Source: Candidatus Pacearchaeota archaeon
GTDB lineage: Archaea > Nanobdellota > Nanobdellia > Pacearchaeales > GW2011-AR1
Direction of reading: 5' to 3'
Assembly (NCBI GenBank): GCA_002688335.1
Contig: NZCQ01000002.1
Span: 1 to 43,189 of the forward strand
Length of the DNA stretch: 43,189 nt
The notes under the pieces were generated by a model. That model ran no database searches. It worked only from the letters and a program-made list of their open reading frames with translations, and was not told where the DNA came from. The first letter of the stretch is position 1; the number at the start of each line of letters is the position of its first letter. The position numbers were made by a program, and so were the translations under genes. Shown here piece after piece: positions 15,802 through 41,045 of the stretch.

Positions 15802-16689
15802 ATGAAACTAGGATTCATAGGACTGGGTAGAATGGGTAGTAACATGGTTCTAAACCTCCTAGACCATAAACACAAACCAGTTGTCTATAATAGAAATTCT
15901 AAAATCACTAAAAAATTTGAGAAAAAAACACCAACCTCCTACTCTTACCAAGAAATGATTTCCAAACTTCCAAAAAGAAAGATAATCTGGTTAATGATCA
16001 CATCAAAGGCAGTAGATTCCATAATAAAAGACCTAATCCCTTTTCTAAAAAAAGGAGATATCCTAATCGACGGAGGAAACTCTTACTTTAAAGATTCCAT
16101 AAGAAGACATAATCAACTAAGAAAACACAAAATATATTTTCTTGATGTTGGAACTTCTGGAGGCATTGAAGGAGCAAGGAATGGTGCATGCATGATGATT
16201 GGAGGAGAAAAAAAGATATTAGAACTAACAGAAAAATTATTCAAAGATATGTGTGTAAAAGATGGTTATGGATATATGGGAGAATCGGGAGCAGGACATT
16301 ACGTTAAAATGGTTCATAATGGAATAGAGTATGGGATGATGTCAGCAATAAGTGAAGGAATTGAAGCAATTAACAAAAAAAAGAACAAATTCAAAACAAA
16401 TCTAAATGAGGTAACCAAAGTCTATAGTAATGGAAGCATTATTGAAGGCAGGTTAATGAGCTGGACAAGAAAAGGAATGAAAAAACCATATTTCAAAAAC
16501 ATTAGTGGAAAAGTTCCAAAAGGAGAAACCGAGAGAGAAATGGAAGAGCTCACGAAGATAGCTAACATGCCAGTCCTAAAGCAAGCTATCAAAGAAAGAA
16601 AGAAGACAAGAAAAAAACCAAGTGAATTTGGGAAAATAATAAGTGTTATGAGAGATGAGTTTGGTGGACATAAGTTTAGTAAGAATTAA
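15802..16689 (+). CDS. gnd: 6-phosphogluconate dehydrogenase, short (YqeC/Gnd-like) form
   Basis: MKLGFIGLGRMGSNMVLNL (NAD(P) Rossmann motif), GGNS, GTSGG, GAGHYVKMVHNGIEYG. Confidence 0.85.
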   Translation: MKLGFIGLGRMGSNMVLNLLDHKHKPVVYNRNSKITKKFEKKTPTSYSYQEMISKLPKRKIIWLMITSKAVDSIIKDLIPFLKKGDILIDGGNSYFKDSIRRHNQLRKHKIYFLDVGTSGGIEGARNGACMMIGGEKKILELTEKLFKDMCVKDGYGYMGESGAGHYVKMVHNGIEYGMMSAISEGIEAINKKKNKFKTNLNEVTKVYSNGSIIEGRLMSWTRKGMKKPYFKNISGKVPKGETEREMEELTKIANMPVLKQAIKERKKTRKKPSEFGKIISVMRDEFGGHKFSKN

Positions 16690-16710
16690 GAAATGTAAAT
16701 AGTATAGCCA

Positions 16711-17049
16711 TTAAGATATCCTCCTATCTGGATTTCTCTTGATAGCATCTTTATATTCATCATAAGTCATCCAAAAACTCTCACTACACTCTAAACAATG
16801 AAAATCGACCTCTGAACTATTTTTATCTAATAACCACTCAACCTCCCTTGATTCACAATCTGGGCAAATTAATTTTTCACCTAACTCCATCCAATCAACA
16901 GAATGCCCAACCCTTGTAGGATCTATATCTCCGCTCTTAAATCCTTTAATCAGATTTTCAATTTCTTCAGATACATCATCCGAAATTTCTTCTAATTCTT
17001 TAACAAATTCGTCGGAAAATTCTACCTTCCATTTCTTTTTTTCTTTCAT
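16711..17049 (-). CDS. Hypothetical zinc-ribbon protein
   Basis: CPDC..(18)..CLEC pattern with an acidic N-terminal half. Confidence 0.45.
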   Translation of the reverse strand: MKEKKKWKVEFSDEFVKELEEISDDVSEEIENLIKGFKSGDIDPTRVGHSVDWMELGEKLICPDCESREVEWLLDKNSSEVDFHCLECSESFWMTYDEYKDAIKRNPDRRIS

Positions 17050-17062
17050 TTCTTAAATTCAA

Positions 17063-17235
17063 AATCATCTGAGTAATCAGGAGACCACACCTTAAAAGGT
17101 GTGAGATTACTCTAGATCCTAACCAATGAAAATCAAGTAGATTTTCGTGGCCCTCAAAATCGTAGATTTTGTCGGAAACAAGGGCCTGTAACAAACCACA
17201 CCCTCTATGTGGTGGCCCATTGTTTTTTTGATGTT
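17063..17235 (-). repeat. R2 two-hairpin element, copy A (candidate ncRNA or cis-regulatory leader)
   Basis: Its reverse complement aligns with 36929-37098. The two share AACATCAAAAAAACAATGG, ACCACA..GGTGTGGTTTGTTACAG, TAGGATCTA.AGTAATC and GATTACT.AGAT, with compensatory stem changes. Confidence 0.7.
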
Positions 17236-17236
17236 C

Positions 17237-17485
17237 TTATTGATCACTCTTATGATACAAATCTAAAACATATACTACGCTCTTATCCCTTAAGTAAGCA
17301 TAAGACAACCTGAATGGTTTTGCATATAATTCTCTTGTTTCTTTCCTATTATGTTGCATTGGTTTCCCAATTTCAGGATATTCAGATATTTTCTTAATTT
17401 GGTTTATTATTTTTTCCCTTAACAGATCATTCTTGATCTTGGAGAATGTTTTAGCAAAATTTTTATCAAAACGCACCTCTACCAT
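17237..17485 (-). CDS. RelE/StbE-family toxin
   Basis: 82 aa, basic. It overlaps the upstream acidic ORF by 7 nt. FRLSYAYLRDKSVVYVLDLYHKS is a typical C-terminal core. Confidence 0.7.
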   Translation of the reverse strand: MVEVRFDKNFAKTFSKIKNDLLREKIINQIKKISEYPEIGKPMQHNRKETRELYAKPFRLSYAYLRDKSVVYVLDLYHKSDQ

Positions 17486-17661
17486 TTATTCATTTCTTCT
17501 AAATTTTCAGAATCCATACTAAGGTACTCTCCAGAATCTATCCTACTCTGTGCTTCTTCAGTCCTTCTTGCAAACTCTAAATCTTCCTTGAACCTCTCAA
17601 ATTCCACCCTTAAATTCTGCAATTCTAGATTCATTTTCTCAAGAGAAGGTCCTTGTTCCAT
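17479..17661 (-). CDS. Putative antitoxin
   Basis: 60 aa, acidic and helical, coupled to the toxin. Confidence 0.5.
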   Translation of the reverse strand: MEQGPSLEKMNLELQNLRVEFERFKEDLEFARRTEEAQSRIDSGEYLSMDSENLEEMNKW

Positions 17662-34831: not shown

Positions 34832-34851
34832 ATAAACTTAATAAGAATAAT

Positions 34852-35028
34852 ATGACATCATCAGATTTTCTATATAGTATGAATTCCAATTTGGAAGAAG
34901 TTCGCCAAGAAAGAAAAACATTAAGATCAAAAATACAACAACAACTAAGAGAAATATCTGAACAAGAGTTAATTGCCGCGTTAGATCCAGAAAAATTTTC
35001 TTATAAAAGAAGTGCGCCATTTCACTAG
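34852..35028 (+). CDS. 58-aa ORF ending at a TAG, after which the same frame stays open for 60 more codons
   Basis: My own translation is MTSSDFLYSMNSNLEEVRQERKTLRSKIQQQLREISEQELIAALDPEKFSYKRSAPFH, then TAG. It continues EYYDRKLEGITIFLNNILGELKLRVIYNIHGIGEYSRSFNGPDIEDLFSKINQSSYDPNP to a TAA at 35209-35211. Confidence 0.3.
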   Translation: MTSSDFLYSMNSNLEEVRQERKTLRSKIQQQLREISEQELIAALDPEKFSYKRSAPFH

Positions 35029-35231
35029 GAATATTATGACCGAAAATTAGAAGGGATTACCATATTTCTAAATAATATCCTTGGAGAGTTAAAATTAAGA
35101 GTAATATATAATATACATGGAATAGGAGAATATTCAAGGTCATTCAATGGCCCAGATATAGAAGACTTATTCTCTAAAATAAATCAAAGTAGTTATGATC
35201 CGAACCCTTAATTATTCCACTACCAAAAACC

Positions 35232-35438
35232 TTACAACAATCCCAACCTATACAAACCATAACCAACCCACAAAACAAGAACTAAATACAACAAACTCCA
35301 ACCCTTAACCATTGGGAACCACTTACTCAAACCCTTAAAATTCTTCTTATACCATTTAGCACAACAATAAGTCGCAATGTTCGCAAACAAGCTATCCAAC
35401 AAAACCAAATAAAATATTACCCCCTCTATGCTAACCAT
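35232..35438 (-). CDS. Small membrane protein
   Basis: Two helices flanking CCAKWYKKNFKG. ATG at 35438. Confidence 0.4.
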   Translation of the reverse strand: MVSIEGVIFYLVLLDSLFANIATYCCAKWYKKNFKGLSKWFPMVKGWSLLYLVLVLWVGYGLYRLGLL

Positions 35439-35570
35439 AAACAGTCTAATCAATCAGCATATTTAAATGTTGTCTAATTAGCTCCATCCATAAACTAAAT
35501 TCTATCCATAAAGTGTCTATAAAGTCATATCAATAATAATTCTCATATAGTCGTGATATTAGTGAATAAA

Positions 35571-36083
35571 ATGAGTAAATCACAAAAAATAGAGGATAGA
35601 AAGAAAGGTGTCAACTTAATTAAAGATGGATGTGCTCTTATTGACACTAGCAGTAGAACAAAAATAGTTAAAGAAAAAAGTGTGTTAGCATTAGTTTCTA
35701 AAGATTTTAATTTTACCATAATGATTCATTCTAAAGAAAAGAAAAAAATACTAAGGAGGTTATTGAAACATAATAATGAAAATAGATCTTACCACATTAT
35801 GCACTCTGTAAAAATATATTATGCAATAAAAGACTATATTGACATATGTCCTGCATTTTACATTTGTTGTGAGGGATTTAATAAGGGTTTGCTTAAACAT
35901 TACCTTAAGAAGATTTTTAATAATAAATATCATGAAAATAAAATAAACATTTTAATGTCTTTAAAGCCCCTATTTGGTAGAAAAAACATAGCAGATAGAA
36001 CTGCATGGGATGTTAACAAGAAAGGGAAAAAACCCACAATGATCTTAAAAGAAAAACATTTTGAGAAACTGCACCTCTTATAA
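35571..36083 (+). CDS. Hypothetical basic protein
   Basis: ORF track, with the ATG at 35571. I recognise no motif. Confidence 0.4.
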   Translation: MSKSQKIEDRKKGVNLIKDGCALIDTSSRTKIVKEKSVLALVSKDFNFTIMIHSKEKKKILRRLLKHNNENRSYHIMHSVKIYYAIKDYIDICPAFYICCEGFNKGLLKHYLKKIFNNKYHENKINILMSLKPLFGRKNIADRTAWDVNKKGKKPTMILKEKHFEKLHLL

Positions 36084-36344
36084 CAAGAATCAGGAGAAAG
36101 GGATTGCCCGAACCTTGAGTTCGGCTACATATAAAAATGTAGGTTCCTCAAGCATCCTCCATCAAATTCCCGCTACAATAATAGTTATGCGCACATATAT
36201 ATAAATGTTTGTGCAGTTCAAAACTTGTAGAACCAGGGGACATATGTCTCCTGGTTGAATCGGTTATTTATACATAAATTTTAGGCCTCTTCGCTAATCC
36301 CATTGATAATGTATAAATCCATATTAGTATTTTGCTACCCATAT

Positions 36345-36515
36345 TAAAGAGACACTCACTTTTCCACAGATACTAAAGAGAACTTTGCATAATTGACATT
36401 TCCGAAGGAAATCACAGCAAAGTTCTCCAAACATTAAGTAAGATGAATTACAGGAGCTAACAATATTTCTAGCGAGGAAATTTGACGAAGTCAATTTCGA
36501 AAGCTGATTTATTAA
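36345..36515 (+). repeat. R1-related structured locus, copy 3 (candidate sRNA)
   Basis: AGAGAACTTTGC..ATTTCC GAA GGAAAT..GCAAAGTTCTC, plus a downstream hairpin GAAATTTGAC GAA GTCAATTTC. Flanks are homologous to 38662-38920. Confidence 0.55.
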
Positions 36516-36662
36516 ATCAATCTGAAAAATTATTTAAATTATGGAAAAAGAATCAAAAGTTCCATAAAAAACCTGTAATCCGCTTTCAGTAGTAATTATC
36601 ATCCAAAATCTTTAAAAACCGATTAAATTTCCTTAACGTAAGTAAACAACCATATTTTAAAA

Positions 36663-36881
36663 ATGGAAGAAGAAATGACAAATAATGAAATGGTTTCAGA
36701 AGAAACTTCTGAACCAACATCTGTTGAAACAACTGAATCAGAAACATCTGATGCAGAAGCTGAAACAACACCAGAAGATGCAACAGCAGATACAGAAGAA
36801 ACAGAGGAAGAAGTAGAAGAAGCCCTTAGTGATGGGGACGATTCTATTGAAACAGATCCCTCTGAAGAAGATTCAGAATAA
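36663..36881 (+). CDS. Extremely acidic 72-aa protein (E/D/T/S-rich)
   Basis: ORF track. It is low-complexity, so its coding status is uncertain. Confidence 0.35.
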   Translation: MEEEMTNNEMVSEETSEPTSVETTESETSDAEAETTPEDATADTEETEEEVEEALSDGDDSIETDPSEEDSE

Positions 36882-36928
36882 ACTCGTTTTTATCTAACTT
36901 ATTTTTATTTATTATTTTATTTATTTTT

Positions 36929-37098
36929 AACATCAAAAAAACAATGGCGCACCACACCTTAAAATCTCAATAACTTTTAGTTCTTGATGATCATACAGAT
37001 CCTTGAGGGGTGTGGTTTGTTACAGCGCCTTGTTTTTAGGATCTACAGTAATCACCACACTCTGAAGAGTGTGGTTCTCTCAGATTACTGAGATAATT
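36929..37098 (+). repeat. R2 two-hairpin element, copy B
   Basis: See copy A. The lower stem is GGCGC/GCGCC here versus GGGCC/GGCCC in copy A. Confidence 0.7.
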
Positions 37099-37142
37099 AA
37101 TAAGAACTCCAAAAGAGAAGTGTTTAAATAATTTGGAATATT

Positions 37143-37628
37143 ATGAAAAAGATGAATATCTCCGATTCATATCAACCACTACTTCAGACAATATCTTTAT
37201 GTGCGATTATCCAAACAGCTGCCCTAAAAGCAAGAGCAAACTCCTTAGAGAAATACATACCTGTTGCAAAAGACAAAGCAGACATCTTAGAACTAAATCA
37301 TTACTTTGATGATAACGGAAAGAGAGTTTTTGATCAAATAATTCTCTGGAATTGGCATCATTCAGAAGGTGAACATCATGTATTTGCATGGAGATTTGCA
37401 AAACAACCCGGGCAAATTCCTCAGAGAAATTGGAGCAAGAACAACTATACAATTCAATGGCTCGACGGAAAAACTCTAAGATATGTTGAAAGTGATTCCC
37501 AAAGAGAAACCTGGACGCAATACGATCCAGAGGTTCATGACAGAACATTCTTCAGACAAAGTCAAAGAAGGGAATTAAGTAGAATGAGATGCCCTCCAAA
37601 AAAACCAGGAAATCCAAACAGAAACTAA
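37143..37628 (+). CDS. Hypothetical protein
   Basis: ORF track. Visibly higher G+C. No motif recognised. Confidence 0.5.
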   Translation: MKKMNISDSYQPLLQTISLCAIIQTAALKARANSLEKYIPVAKDKADILELNHYFDDNGKRVFDQIILWNWHHSEGEHHVFAWRFAKQPGQIPQRNWSKNNYTIQWLDGKTLRYVESDSQRETWTQYDPEVHDRTFFRQSQRRELSRMRCPPKKPGNPNRN

Positions 37629-38587
37629 CCCAACTCAATTATGGCCTCATTATTCCCCTCATTCAATTCTTCAATCTCATCATCTATATCAATAATAAAC
37701 TTAATTGATTCAGGATTTCTTCTCTTTAATCTAAGATTCTGAGTTCTCAAAGTTATTCCAGCACCAAACCCAATACTCTCAATCTCCCTTATATCAATAA
37801 CATCACCATTATCTAAAATAGTCAAAACAATATTATCTGCATCAACAACACCAAAATTCTTCATGGTCAAATTAAAATCTAAATACCTTCCCCTTTTCAC
37901 AGCATTAAAATCCTCAAAAAGCAAATCAGGCAAATTAGGCAAAGCATAAATTCTGTTCAATTCATCTATCAAACCTTCATCTAACTTTTGACTACAAGAA
38001 GTAAGAAAAGGGTACATAATGCTTCTCTTATCATCTGAATGATCAAACCCTAACACATGCAATATCTCATGCACCTCAACATTCGGATAATCACATTTAA
38101 TAGATTTCTTATTATCAAATAAGTAAATGATGCCTTCAACAATAACATAAGACTCTCCAGATTCAATGATCTCCTTAGCTCCCCCCTCCCCAGCAATAAA
38201 ATACTTCTTACCAGAACCAACATTAACTTTCTCCTCAGAACAAATCACCTCAACATCTCCCCCAAACTCAACCTCCTGAAATCTCAAAGCAGAAACCCAC
38301 TTTTCTATCTCATCAAAAGCCCGAATCATTCTAACCACCTGCTCACCACTACACTCGTCTTCAATATCATAACTTATTGTCCTATGATTAAACCTCATAT
38401 TTGAATAAAATTGCTTAACCTCTCCAATCTCAACACTGCCATCTCTCTCAGCTATCCTAACCTCCAAGTTCTCAGCCTCTCCAGGAATATTCATATATAG
38501 GAAATAAACTATAATAAACAAAACAATCAAAAACATAAATCCAAAAAGAATTTTAGATAAAAGACTCTGAGATAATTCGTTATTCAT
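37625..38587 (-). CDS. Membrane-anchored metzincin (matrixin-like) zinc protease
   Basis: HEILHVLGFDHS (HExxHxxGxxH) followed by SIMYP (Met-turn). N-terminal TM helix. Confidence 0.75.
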   Translation of the reverse strand: MNNELSQSLLSKILFGFMFLIVLFIIVYFLYMNIPGEAENLEVRIAERDGSVEIGEVKQFYSNMRFNHRTISYDIEDECSGEQVVRMIRAFDEIEKWVSALRFQEVEFGGDVEVICSEEKVNVGSGKKYFIAGEGGAKEIIESGESYVIVEGIIYLFDNKKSIKCDYPNVEVHEILHVLGFDHSDDKRSIMYPFLTSCSQKLDEGLIDELNRIYALPNLPDLLFEDFNAVKRGRYLDFNLTMKNFGVVDADNIVLTILDNGDVIDIREIESIGFGAGITLRTQNLRLKRRNPESIKFIIDIDDEIEELNEGNNEAIIELG

Positions 38588-38661
38588 CAATCCATAAATT
38601 AAAAAACTTATTTAAAACTATCATCAGGGTTTACTACTAACAATATAATCCCCACTTAGGG

Positions 38662-38900
38662 TTAAGACTCACACATTCGAAAACAGATCATATCTCTCTA
38701 AAGAGAACTTTGCATAATTGACATTTCCGAAGACTTCAATTTCTTTGAAGTTGAATGTGTCAGGAATTTTAATTCCTGAGGAAATCACAGCAAAGTTCTC
38801 TCTTAGAGGAGTTTGAAATTGCATTATTTCAAAGTTCTCTAAAGGTAATTGTAGACATTTCAAAACGTTAGCGAAGGAACTTGGCAAAGCCAGTTCCGAG
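38662..38900 (+). repeat. R1-related structured locus, copy 4, with a 47-nt two-hairpin expansion in the inner loop (candidate sRNA)
   Basis: AGAGAACTTTGC..ATTTCC GAAG[ACTTCAA TTTC TTGAAGT..CAGGAATT TT AATTCCTG]A GGAAAT..GCAAAGTTCTCT, then a second module, then GGAACTTGGC AAA GCCAGTTCC, ending in a T5 run. Confidence 0.6.
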
Positions 38901-38994
38901 AGCGATTTTTCAACTACTCCCTTAAGGGAGAGTGAGCGATTTCATTCCCCCACTGGATGGGTTAATGGGCCTTAGTTGAAAAAATTACATCCAT

Positions 38995-40503
38995 TCACTC
39001 ACACATAGCCAAAGCCTCAATCTCTGGGATATAAAGCTTCTTTTCATTCAAATCTTTGTAAGACTTAGAACCAGTAGCACTAAGAATTTCTTTAAACTCT
39101 TTCTCCAGATTAACTGCATAATTCTTAACTCTCTCTGCCTTCTCCTCAATATCCAATCCCTTCTGCAAACCCGGATTCTGCGTAGTTATTCCAACCGGAC
39201 AAGTATTTTTATTGCACTGTAAGGCCTGTATACAACCTAAAGCAAGCATAAACCCTCTCGCAGTATAAACAACATCAGCTCCCAATGCTAAGGCAATAAT
39301 CTGCTTCCCGGGATTAATCAACTTTCCAGATGCAACAATCTTCATCTTGTCCCTCACTCCCCCCTTAACTAAAATATTCTGAACACTTCTTAATGCAGGA
39401 AACAATGGAACACCTACATCATCCATAAAACTCTTAGGAGCAGCCCCAGTACCTCCTTGACTGCCATCAAGAGCAACATAATCTGGAAAAACATTTTGTA
39501 ATTTCATTTCCTTAACTAAATCCGTGAACTCGCTTTCATCCCCCAAACACAGCTTCATTCCAACAGGCAATTGAGAAACATCTTGAACTCTCTTAATAAA
39601 CTCAACAGTTGTTTTAGCATCCTTACATTCAATATGATGACTAGGACTTACAACATCTCTCCCCATAGGAACCCTCCGCAATGAAGAGATTTCTCCAGTA
39701 ATCTTTTCTTTTGGAAGAAGTCCTCCCTTACCAGGTTTAGCCCCTTGAGAAAACTTTATCTCGATCATCTTAATCTGAGGATTCTCAGATAACTTTCTTA
39801 ATTTATACTCGTTCAAACTTCCATCCTCATTCCTAACTCCAAACTTAGCAGTCCCCATTTGAAAAATAATATTTGGACCCTCCATTAGATGATATTTAGG
39901 ATATCCTCCCTCCCCAGTATTAATAGGAATTCCTGCCTTCTTAGCCCCTCTAGCCAAGGCCCTAACAGCACTCTCTCCAAGAGCTCCAAAACTCATAGCA
40001 CTTATCATAGCAGGCTTATTTATTGCATAAATATTACTAATTCCACGCTCCTCACCAAAAACAACTTTATAGCCCCCATACCCGCTAGAGGGGAACATTG
40101 AATGCCGAATCTTAATCTCATGTTCATTAAATTCATTTTGAGATCCAAATGAAGAAGTAGAATCTTCATTCTTACTTTTACTATAAACTTCTTCTCTCTC
40201 AGTTCTATTAAATGGCCTCTCCTCATTATCGCTCAAATAAAGATACTGTCGGAACTCAGGACCAATTGACTCAAGCATATAACGAAGCTGTCCAATAATT
40301 CCAAAATTTCTCAGCACAGCATACTTAACTTGAAAATTCATCAGATAAACATTAACCAAAAAAAGCCCACCAAAAACAACAGATCCTATGTGATACCACT
40401 TAGAATTCCTAACTCCAAAAAAGATAAACAAGGCTGCAAGCAGAGGTATAACAACATTAGTCACTGCAGCTATCTTATGAAGATTTATCGCTAGTCTCGG
40501 CAT
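38995..40503 (-). CDS. FMN-binding glutamate synthase (GltB domain 2)-related protein with N-terminal TM helices
   Basis: GEGG, FSQGAKPGKGG.LP, LDGSQGGTGAAP and GKLINPG motifs. Confidence 0.85.
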   Translation of the reverse strand: MPRLAINLHKIAAVTNVVIPLLAALFIFFGVRNSKWYHIGSVVFGGLFLVNVYLMNFQVKYAVLRNFGIIGQLRYMLESIGPEFRQYLYLSDNEERPFNRTEREEVYSKSKNEDSTSSFGSQNEFNEHEIKIRHSMFPSSGYGGYKVVFGEERGISNIYAINKPAMISAMSFGALGESAVRALARGAKKAGIPINTGEGGYPKYHLMEGPNIIFQMGTAKFGVRNEDGSLNEYKLRKLSENPQIKMIEIKFSQGAKPGKGGLLPKEKITGEISSLRRVPMGRDVVSPSHHIECKDAKTTVEFIKRVQDVSQLPVGMKLCLGDESEFTDLVKEMKLQNVFPDYVALDGSQGGTGAAPKSFMDDVGVPLFPALRSVQNILVKGGVRDKMKIVASGKLINPGKQIIALALGADVVYTARGFMLALGCIQALQCNKNTCPVGITTQNPGLQKGLDIEEKAERVKNYAVNLEKEFKEILSATGSKSYKDLNEKKLYIPEIEALAMCE

Positions 40504-40821: not shown

Positions 40822-41045
40822 GTTACCATCTTGGCACATAATTATTTTAATAACGCTAGAATTACTCACTCATGCCTTAGATTATCTATTAGATATCAGA
40901 AATGATATAAATTTTGGGTTAACATCAGTTTCCTAAAATTATGTGTAAATGAACTATTTTAAAGTAGGACATATGTCTCTAGGGTCTACAACTTTTCCAT
41001 AATCCACAACATTTATAACTCTTCAATTCTCAACTTACTTAGAAA

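Follow-up and report, generated by a model that had tools for sequence, protein, structure and literature searches.

The window analysed in this work is a stretch of 43,189 nucleotides from a Candidatus Pacearchaeota archaeon, and within it we have studied an island at positions 36084-37142 that carries hairpins and repeats. We consider it highly likely that this island is a mosaic with no single functional unit, namely a pile-up of repeats around one real gene for a small acidic protein, in which a palindrome is the end of a promoter-targeting element resembling the insertion sequences (IS) of the IS481 family. This reading draws on dispersed repeat families, on target duplications, on a fixed spacing between element ends and TATA boxes, and on the conservation of the acidic open reading frame (ORF) together with its promoter. 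The island itself is ordinary genome litter, and three points are worth keeping: the promoter targeting, the small gene and a caution on hairpins.

The source is a metagenome-assembled genome of 1.04 Mb in 80 contigs, 72% complete and with a GC content of about 33%, in which the window is contig C2. Its TATA-type promoters and leaderless genes are what one would expect of an archaeon. For comparison we used 49 genomes of the genus (48 besides the source genome), and 201 genomes of the order for the inverted-repeat signature. The internal gaps of the assembly were ranked by a crude gene model of non-overlapping ORFs of at least 80 amino acids. The gap 36084-37142 (1059 bp) is the fifth longest of 850 internal gaps, the median gap being 87 bp, which bears out the original prediction of a nearly noncoding island of about 1 kb. 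If the acidic ORF is included among the genes, the 579 bp to its left take 16th place among 930 gaps. The elements listed by the original prediction (hairpins, palindrome, repeat R1, acidic ORF, T-tract, repeat R2) were all found, with coordinates within a few bases, and the repeat map of the island consists of an R3 segment at 36200-36300, R1 at 36373-36427, R4 at 36457-36505 and R2 at 36915-37103. The only ORF of at least 60 amino acids wholly inside the gap is a 72-residue sequence rich in E, D, T and S (36663-36881). A second ORF-poor stretch without any ORF of at least 80 amino acids is found at 34832-35552 (721 bp, 22nd of 850 gaps), and the whole region from 34.8 to 37.7 kb is gene-poor.

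The palindrome is a 26-nt near-palindrome at 36231-36256, where 24 of the 26 positions are complementary. Its core GACATATGTC is found at 16 sites in the genome, with about one expected. On the strength of sequence comparison we assign the palindrome to the inverted repeat (subterminal part) shared by an IS481-like IS and its miniature inverted-repeat transposable elements (MITEs), because copies of the motif bracket a transposase gene, lie at contig ends and are accompanied by duplications of 15-16 bp. The full IS is located on contig C7 at about 16446-17408, where two motif copies bracket a 288-amino-acid transposase and a 15-bp duplication TGTTTGTTATACGGG is present. This copy lies 6 nt 5' of the TATA box of tRNA-Met, and its right inverted repeat includes one undetermined base (N). 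The transposase has the Pfam domains HTH_32, rve and rve_3, and its best NCBIfam model is NF033577 (IS481; E = 4e-54) with 184 bits, below the curated cutoff of 224, while IS3 scores 83 bits. Across the family both element ends carry the inverted repeat TGT[GA]N-N8-GACATATGTC and the target duplication is 15-16 bp; such duplications, several of them perfect (16/16), accompany a copy of 950 bp from a relative as well as MITEs 236-257 bp long from several genomes. This genome has four MITEs of about 250 bp, and two of these contain a nested R1. In relatives, identical motif copies lie 30-120 nt from many contig ends, as is characteristic of a multicopy element. The inverted-repeat signature was found in 34 of the 201 genomes of the order, and a control pattern gave 0 matches. 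Furthermore, palindromes of 36 bp, in which the left inverted repeat and the right one have the 10-bp core GACATATGTC in common, are present at C7 7722-7757, C31 2889-2924 and C46 2938-2975, as well as in a relative (genome G054, locus L080). They are either minimal MITEs or deletion products of recombination at the palindromic core. Those of this genome have no target duplication and the one in G054 has a duplication of 12-13 bp.

With the IS481 family the element shares a single transposase of about 290 amino acids with a helix-turn-helix (HTH) and an rve-type DDE domain, inverted repeats starting with TGT, a long target duplication, a length of about 950 bp and short non-autonomous derivatives that have the same ends. 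It differs from the family in the transposase score (184 bits against the curated cutoff of 224) and in the subterminal core GACATATGTC, which is itself palindromic here. In the IS481 family the target duplication is 4-15 bp, and the 15-16 bp found here is at or just past that upper limit.

The ends of this element stand at a fixed distance from TATA boxes. A TATA box was scored as a match of at least 7 out of 8 to TTTAWATA at a given offset from the element end, using distinct ends only. In this genome the layout GACATATGTC-N8-[GC][CT]AC-N21/22-TATA is found at 11-12 sites, and the promoters faced are those of leaderless ORFs, of tRNA-Ile and tRNA-Met, and of the proteasome (alpha and beta genes). 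Within the genus (17 genomes, 73 distinct ends), a TATA box stands at offsets 21-24 for 30 ends, with 8, 15, 3 and 4 ends at 21, 22, 23 and 24, respectively, and about one at each other offset. An independent set of other genera and families gave 24 of 60 ends (11 genomes), with 7, 12, 2 and 3 at the same four offsets. Taken over every SYACA site in the genome, the background amounts to 0.35% per offset, and for the pooled sets 54 of 133 ends have a TATA box at 21-24, where 1.9 are expected (P = 2.6e-63). Neither the 212 R1 ends nor the R2 ends show a peak in TATA distance. We also collected insertions linked through their duplications, i.e. intact copies and contig ends joined through reverse-complementary duplications, and all 20 within-genome insertions of this kind (10 genomes) have a TATA box 21-24 nt from at least one end. 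Either element end can face the TATA box, and the sequence in between is not conserved while the spacing is. The duplicated segment of 15-16 bp ends 4-5 bp 5' of the TATA box, so that the TATA box and the transcription factor B recognition element (BRE) stay with their gene, and the tRNA or ATG follows at normal distance.

The same layout could be read in another way, with the palindrome primarily an operator or upstream activating site of a dimeric factor, whose regulon would comprise tRNAs, the proteasome and other genes, and not a transposon end. The dyad symmetry and the fixed TATA distance at the 11-12 sites in front of housekeeping genes agree with this, and the HTH of a transposase bound to the repeat could incidentally affect an adjoining promoter. 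Against this, either a transposase gene or some 230 bp of conserved sequence lies between paired motifs, with direct 15-16-bp duplications outside, identical copies lie at many contig ends in relatives, a TATA box is faced by only one end of the two, the 21 nt that separate end and TATA box show no conservation, and the motif is missing from 32 of the 49 genus genomes, which is odd for a housekeeping regulator. We hold the operator to be very improbable indeed as the primary role. An upstream activating site, suggested by the fixed TATA spacing, had been among the candidates and was dropped in view of the contig-end copies, the transposase gene and the duplications.

Keeping the transposon end as the preferred reading, the transposase itself appears to choose the promoter target, because selection alone would not give a register of one base. 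We propose that the palindrome in R3 would be the site where the transposase binds, and that a staggered cut of 15-16 bp would be made with its promoter-proximal edge 4-5 bp 5' of the TATA box. The host promoter including the BRE would be left intact, and whichever way the element is oriented, its end would come to stand 21-22 nt from the TATA box. The transposase would either read the BRE/TATA DNA or dock on bound TBP/TFB.

In our literature search no report of TATA-directed insertion in archaea was found, and such behaviour was found for bacterial TnGBS-type elements and for yeast and amoeba retroelements. TnGBS, ISLre2 and ISKra4 insert 15-17 bp 5' of the -35 box of sigma-A promoters, sparing genes and promoters (PMC3942029). 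The strategy is the same, a fixed distance 5' of the promoter, but their transposase is Mutator-like and unrelated to rve/IS481, the promoters are bacterial sigma-A promoters and not archaeal BRE/TATA, and the orientation is mostly one, whereas either end faces the TATA box here; the IS481-like family is thus a functional analogue only. TFIIIB contains TBP and a TFB-like subunit. Ty3 docks on TFIIIB and in this way integrates at the promoters to which that factor is bound (PMC8632968, PMC6101501). Ty3 and the amoeba TRE elements have an rve-type integrase, insert within a few bases of a fixed core-promoter point and live in gene-dense genomes. The parallel is functional only, since Ty3 is a long terminal repeat retroelement at transcription start sites of RNA polymerase III and the present element is a DNA transposon 5' of the TATA box. 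The promoter targeting offers a possible route to how a transposase recognises the archaeal core promoter and a computational means to locate promoters in uncultured DPANN genomes, and it may explain how very compact genomes tolerate active transposons.

The copy of the element in the island, R3, is located on the plus strand at 36226-36301, as delimited by alignment with the copies at 40932-41017 of the window and on contigs C7, C9 and C74. The inverted repeat TGTAG-N8-GACATATGTC covers 36226-36248, with the terminus TGTAG at 36226. The conserved subterminal sequence TTATTTATACATAAATTTTAGG..GCTAATCCC follows 3' of the palindrome, and homology to the MITE family extends rightward to about 36301. 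As it has the left end and about 76 nt of homology only, the island copy does not count as an intact MITE; judging by this alignment it is a decayed fragment of a MITE whose right end was lost or has decayed. The 16 bp adjoining the R3 end (36210-36225) are the segment which the family duplicates on insertion. Next to them, on the minus strand, a TATA box TTTATATATA is found at 36196-36205, with an 8/8 match at offset 21 from the R3 end, so that the order on that strand is CTACA, 16 nt, AACA and TTTATATATA. Because of this match and offset, R3 probably landed 5' of a leftward promoter, which presumably is or was active and from which transcription is predicted to start near 36175. The original prediction had placed the palindrome directly upstream of a TATA-like TTATTTATAC. 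Both are present, the latter at 36264-36273 on the plus strand, but TTATTTATAC belongs to the conserved interior of the MITE, and the TATA box at the family spacing is the one on the other strand.

Downstream of the leftward TATA box, at 36084-36195 on the minus strand, there is an ORF-less stretch that contains the hairpins GCCCGAAC..GTTCGGC (36106-36125) and CTACAT..ATGTAG (36125-36142). A leftward transcript would run through these two hairpins and micro-ORFs of 4 and 21 codons and then into the antisense 3' end of the upstream gene. The stretch is unique in the genome save for one 23-nt match, and 36060-36225 gave only chance-level matches in the 48 other genus genomes. The fold of the predicted leftward transcript has -32 kcal/mol and is marginal compared with shuffled sequences (z = -1.76). 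The stretch may encode a small RNA peculiar to the strain or an antisense transcript of the upstream ORF, or it may be what is left of a promoter whose gene has gone. A box C/D RNA (UGAUGG ... CUGA) was considered for the leftward transcript and rejected, as it has no internal C'/D' boxes, the wrong length and no Rfam match. If the transposase docks on the TBP/TFB complex or its DNA bend at active promoters, as an archaeal DNA-transposon counterpart of Ty3 integrase and TFIIIB, the orphan leftward TATA box would mark a live promoter, from which either a structured RNA without an ORF, about 95 nt long, or a transcript antisense to the upstream gene is made; we regard this combination as possible but rather doubtful.

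Two further sequences deserve mention. An exact GACATATGTC is found at 35841-35850 inside the upstream 170-amino-acid ORF, where it encodes D-I-C-P and lacks the surroundings of an inverted repeat; a genome of this size is expected to contain one such site by chance, and this may be it. Another fragment of an IS481-like MITE is located at 40932-41017 of the window (minus strand), beside tRNA-Asp, and its end faces a TATA box TTTATAAC at offset 22 that points right on the plus strand.

Taken together, the repeats of the island behave as mobile DNA, with target duplications, nested insertions, dispersed copies and copies at contig ends seen among them. R1 has about 35 matches in the genome, far beyond chance, and copies with 96% identity in a relative. 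Its full form is a two-hairpin element of about 91 nt with the ends GAGAAC...GTTCTC and perfect 4-bp target duplications (TTAA, TATA, TTTA, TTCA and others). The first hairpin, a short noncoding 51-nt unit GAGAACTTTGC...GCAAAGTTCTC with terminal inverted repeats, is also found solo with a duplication, e.g. on C17 and C20, where the duplication is TTCA. In the island R1 is present as a solo-hairpin MITE of this sort, at 36374-36431 on the plus strand (unit 36378-36427). Nested R1 copies were observed within IS481-like MITEs at C74 8685-9031 and C9 10955-11303, the former sitting, with a TATA duplication, in the TATA-like box of the host MITE that corresponds to TTATTTATAC. R1 seemingly prefers 4-bp targets of the form T-N-N-A.

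R2 is a dispersed repeat of two hairpins with 10-15 genomic copies, far beyond chance, in modular long and short forms with covarying stems. The island copy (36932-37094, plus strand) has in the loop of hairpin 1 a 47-nt insert which it has in common with copies on contigs C33 and C35. For R2 we saw no target duplication and no fixed distance to TATA boxes. In the short forms at C52 21345-21395 and C17 about 17440-17540, hairpin 1 is reduced to its 5' half and hairpin 2 to its 3' half, with the two halves joined, and these forms look like deletions between repeated CCACAC/GGTGTGG stems. R4 is a 36-nt hairpin repeat TAGCGAGGAAATTTGAC GAA GTCAATTTCGAAAGCT at 36470-36505 on the plus strand, with three copies in the genome. 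Neither a target duplication nor a mobilising enzyme was identified for R2 and R4, and no search aimed at a RAYT-type transposase for R2 was made. R1, R2 and R4 are like Correia elements, Sulfolobus SM MITEs and REP/BIME in being short, hairpin-forming, multicopy, noncoding and mostly intergenic, and R1 also in its terminal inverted repeats and 4-bp duplication, but they are new sequence families confined to DPANN archaea.

The original prediction had taken the island for an accessory RNA-based locus and not ordinary spacer, in which R1, R2 and the hairpins would be structured small RNA genes transcribed from the TATA-like box. Differences between copies are compensatory in the stems of R1 (ATTTCC/GGAAAT against ATTTGC/GCAAAT) and of R2 (GGCGC/GCGCC against GGGCC/GGCCC), and a TATA-like box is conserved in the R3 interior, which speaks for such RNA genes. 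However, mobile elements with DNA hairpins or inverted repeats should likewise show paired changes, the contexts of the copies are unrelated, R1 has target duplications and is nested inside other repeats, and the unique hairpin stretch is not conserved in the 48 relatives and folds with the marginal z given above. No Rfam match was obtained in 35000-39100 even at E values up to 10; with gathering thresholds, tRNAs were all that Rfam returned for the window (four of them) and for six further contigs of this genome, and a search of the island with ARAGORN yielded neither a tRNA nor half of one. An RNA-based locus is thus very unlikely, and what stands of that proposal is that the island is something other than ordinary spacer; it is a local synteny breakpoint full of conserved hairpin repeats. 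As a general caution, hairpins and compensatory stem changes in repeats do not by themselves indicate RNA genes. On the mosaic reading the island would have arisen by successive insertions of the R1 MITE, the two-hairpin repeat R2, the R4 hairpin and the R3 MITE, the last of which would be left as a truncated residue.

The one gene amid these repeats encodes the 72-amino-acid protein at 36663-36881 (plus strand), which has 44% Asp+Glu and zero basic residues. Whether this ORF is coding at all had been doubted; the comparison with relatives removes the doubt, and we take the ORF to be a real gene because its position, orientation, start and promoter are conserved. A hyper-acidic ORF on the opposite strand, tail to tail with a gene for an M10 metalloprotease, is found in 21 of the 31 M10 loci fetched from the genus (39-92 amino acids, 38-80% Asp+Glu). 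These orthologues are of low complexity and change in length by repeat expansion. In an alignment of 11 orthologues the start ATG-GAA-GAA is common, a BRE/TATA element (aaagg-TTTAAAAAC) lies about 44-52 nt 5' of the ATG, a box TAATTAAAT is located close to where transcription should start, and a dyad TGTCACTC-N7-8-AGTGAAT is present in the majority. From this alignment of upstream regions, the promoter in the window is predicted at 36573-36647 (plus strand), with a dyad remnant at 36573-36596, the BRE/TATA element CTTTAAAAAC at 36610-36619 and an initiator-like box at 36638-36647. Transcription from it is predicted to start near 36642. The dyad lies about 15-20 nt 5' of the BRE/TATA in the window and in 10 relatives, and the window copy is degenerate. 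It is a candidate operator and would imply that the acidic gene is regulated. Archaeal RNA polymerase terminates at oligo-T runs, and the T-rich tract at 36882-36931 (plus strand), with three runs of five T, is a probable terminator of the gene. The antisense frame had been described as open as well. A 65-amino-acid antisense ORF does exist (36586-36783), but it covers only the first half of the acidic ORF; an open frame there is to be expected from the GAA-rich composition and is no argument against coding.

The acidic ORF has no family match in Pfam, PHROGs, PADLOC or NCBIfam. A single-sequence AlphaFold2 model, which is a weak test, is essentially coil (pLDDT 62, pTM 0.15), and since neither secondary structure in the model nor a family match was found, we read the protein as a disordered polyanion. 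Our best guess, of low confidence, is that its partners are very basic and that it binds or buffers them. Prothymosin-alpha and DSS1/Sem1 are small acidic disordered proteins, and the classical DNA mimics Ocr and ArdA are folded. The acidic protein is like the first two in its small size, strong negative charge and (predicted) absence of a fold, but it lacks the aromatic anchor residues of DSS1, and it has no sequence homology to any of the four. With Ocr and ArdA it shares charge and small size and not the folded scaffold. The original prediction had likened its composition to that of DNA-mimic proteins, and the high negative charge agrees with this. A folded scaffold with a DNA-like array of charges is not what was found, given the low scores of this weak test and the great variation of orthologue length and repeats; with no confidently predicted fold the idea stands on charge. 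The gene adds to the archaeal small-protein inventory a positionally conserved hyper-acidic protein, predicted to be disordered, with a conserved and possibly regulated promoter, and such genes may go unannotated.

Several points weigh against the mosaic as we have drawn it. The right end of R3 and the second copy of the 16-bp target were found neither in the island nor in the whole assembly, and calling R3 a fragment depends on about 76 nt of homology together with the spacing rule. Nothing recognisable lies downstream of the leftward TATA box. The flanks of the solo R1 unit in the island, TAAA and CAAA, match at 3 of 4 positions. The element ends are not fully independent samples, as the genomes are related. 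The activity of all promoters is something we infer, and what we say of the acidic protein's function is guessed from composition.

The convergent neighbour of the acidic gene is an M10 (matrixin-type) metalloprotease with Peptidase_M10 and CARDB domains, located at 37625-38590 on the minus strand, with orthologues in 40 of the 49 genus genomes. Measured between alignment ends, the gap from the acidic ORF to M10 is about 90-400 bp in most relatives and 831 bp in the window; by ORF coordinates the spacer is 24-299 bp in three relatives against 744 bp here. The extra DNA consists of R2 and a gene at 37152-37628 (plus strand), both of which would have come in between the acidic gene and M10. This gene encodes a protein of 158 amino acids from an uncharacterised family and is preceded by a TATA box TTTAAATA at 37123-37130. 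The start had been placed at 37143. It is most likely 37152 instead, as the database copy of the protein is also 158 amino acids long, and the mRNA would then probably be leaderless. The stop codon of the gene overlaps that of the convergent M10 gene.

Both flanking genes had been described as orphans, a description that the searches do not uphold. The downstream gene has about 95 metagenomic homologues, and the best (60% identity) is on marine metagenome contigs with bacterial-type neighbours (PilZ, Peptidase_S8, AMP-binding enzyme). It is absent from the 48 other genus genomes and was probably acquired horizontally, from a bacterium to DPANN. The upstream ORF (170 amino acids) has weak paralogues. 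For either ORF no match was found in Pfam, PHROGs, PADLOC or NCBIfam, except a weak match of the upstream ORF to phrog_28596. The synteny comparison that the original prediction had called for does reveal variability, seen in the absence of the 37152-37628 gene from relatives and in R2, which is missing from the spacers between acidic ORF and M10 in relatives.

We also considered whether frameshifts or errors of sequencing hide ordinary genes in the island. In favour of this, stop-free stretches in 36084-36662 reach 69 codons, and the assembly is a metagenome-assembled genome of 72% completeness. However, a tblastn search with all ORFs of 35 related M10 loci gave a best E of 0.04 in 34832-37142 (a full translated database search was not run), and the repeats and the acidic-gene promoter account for much of the gap. 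The gene 5' of the acidic ORF varies among relatives, so that no specific gene is expected there, and we regard hidden genes as so improbable as to be nearly negligible. A zinc-ribbon gene, which is not in this genome, occupies that place in only 3 of 18 relatives, and the island has therefore replaced no conserved neighbour.

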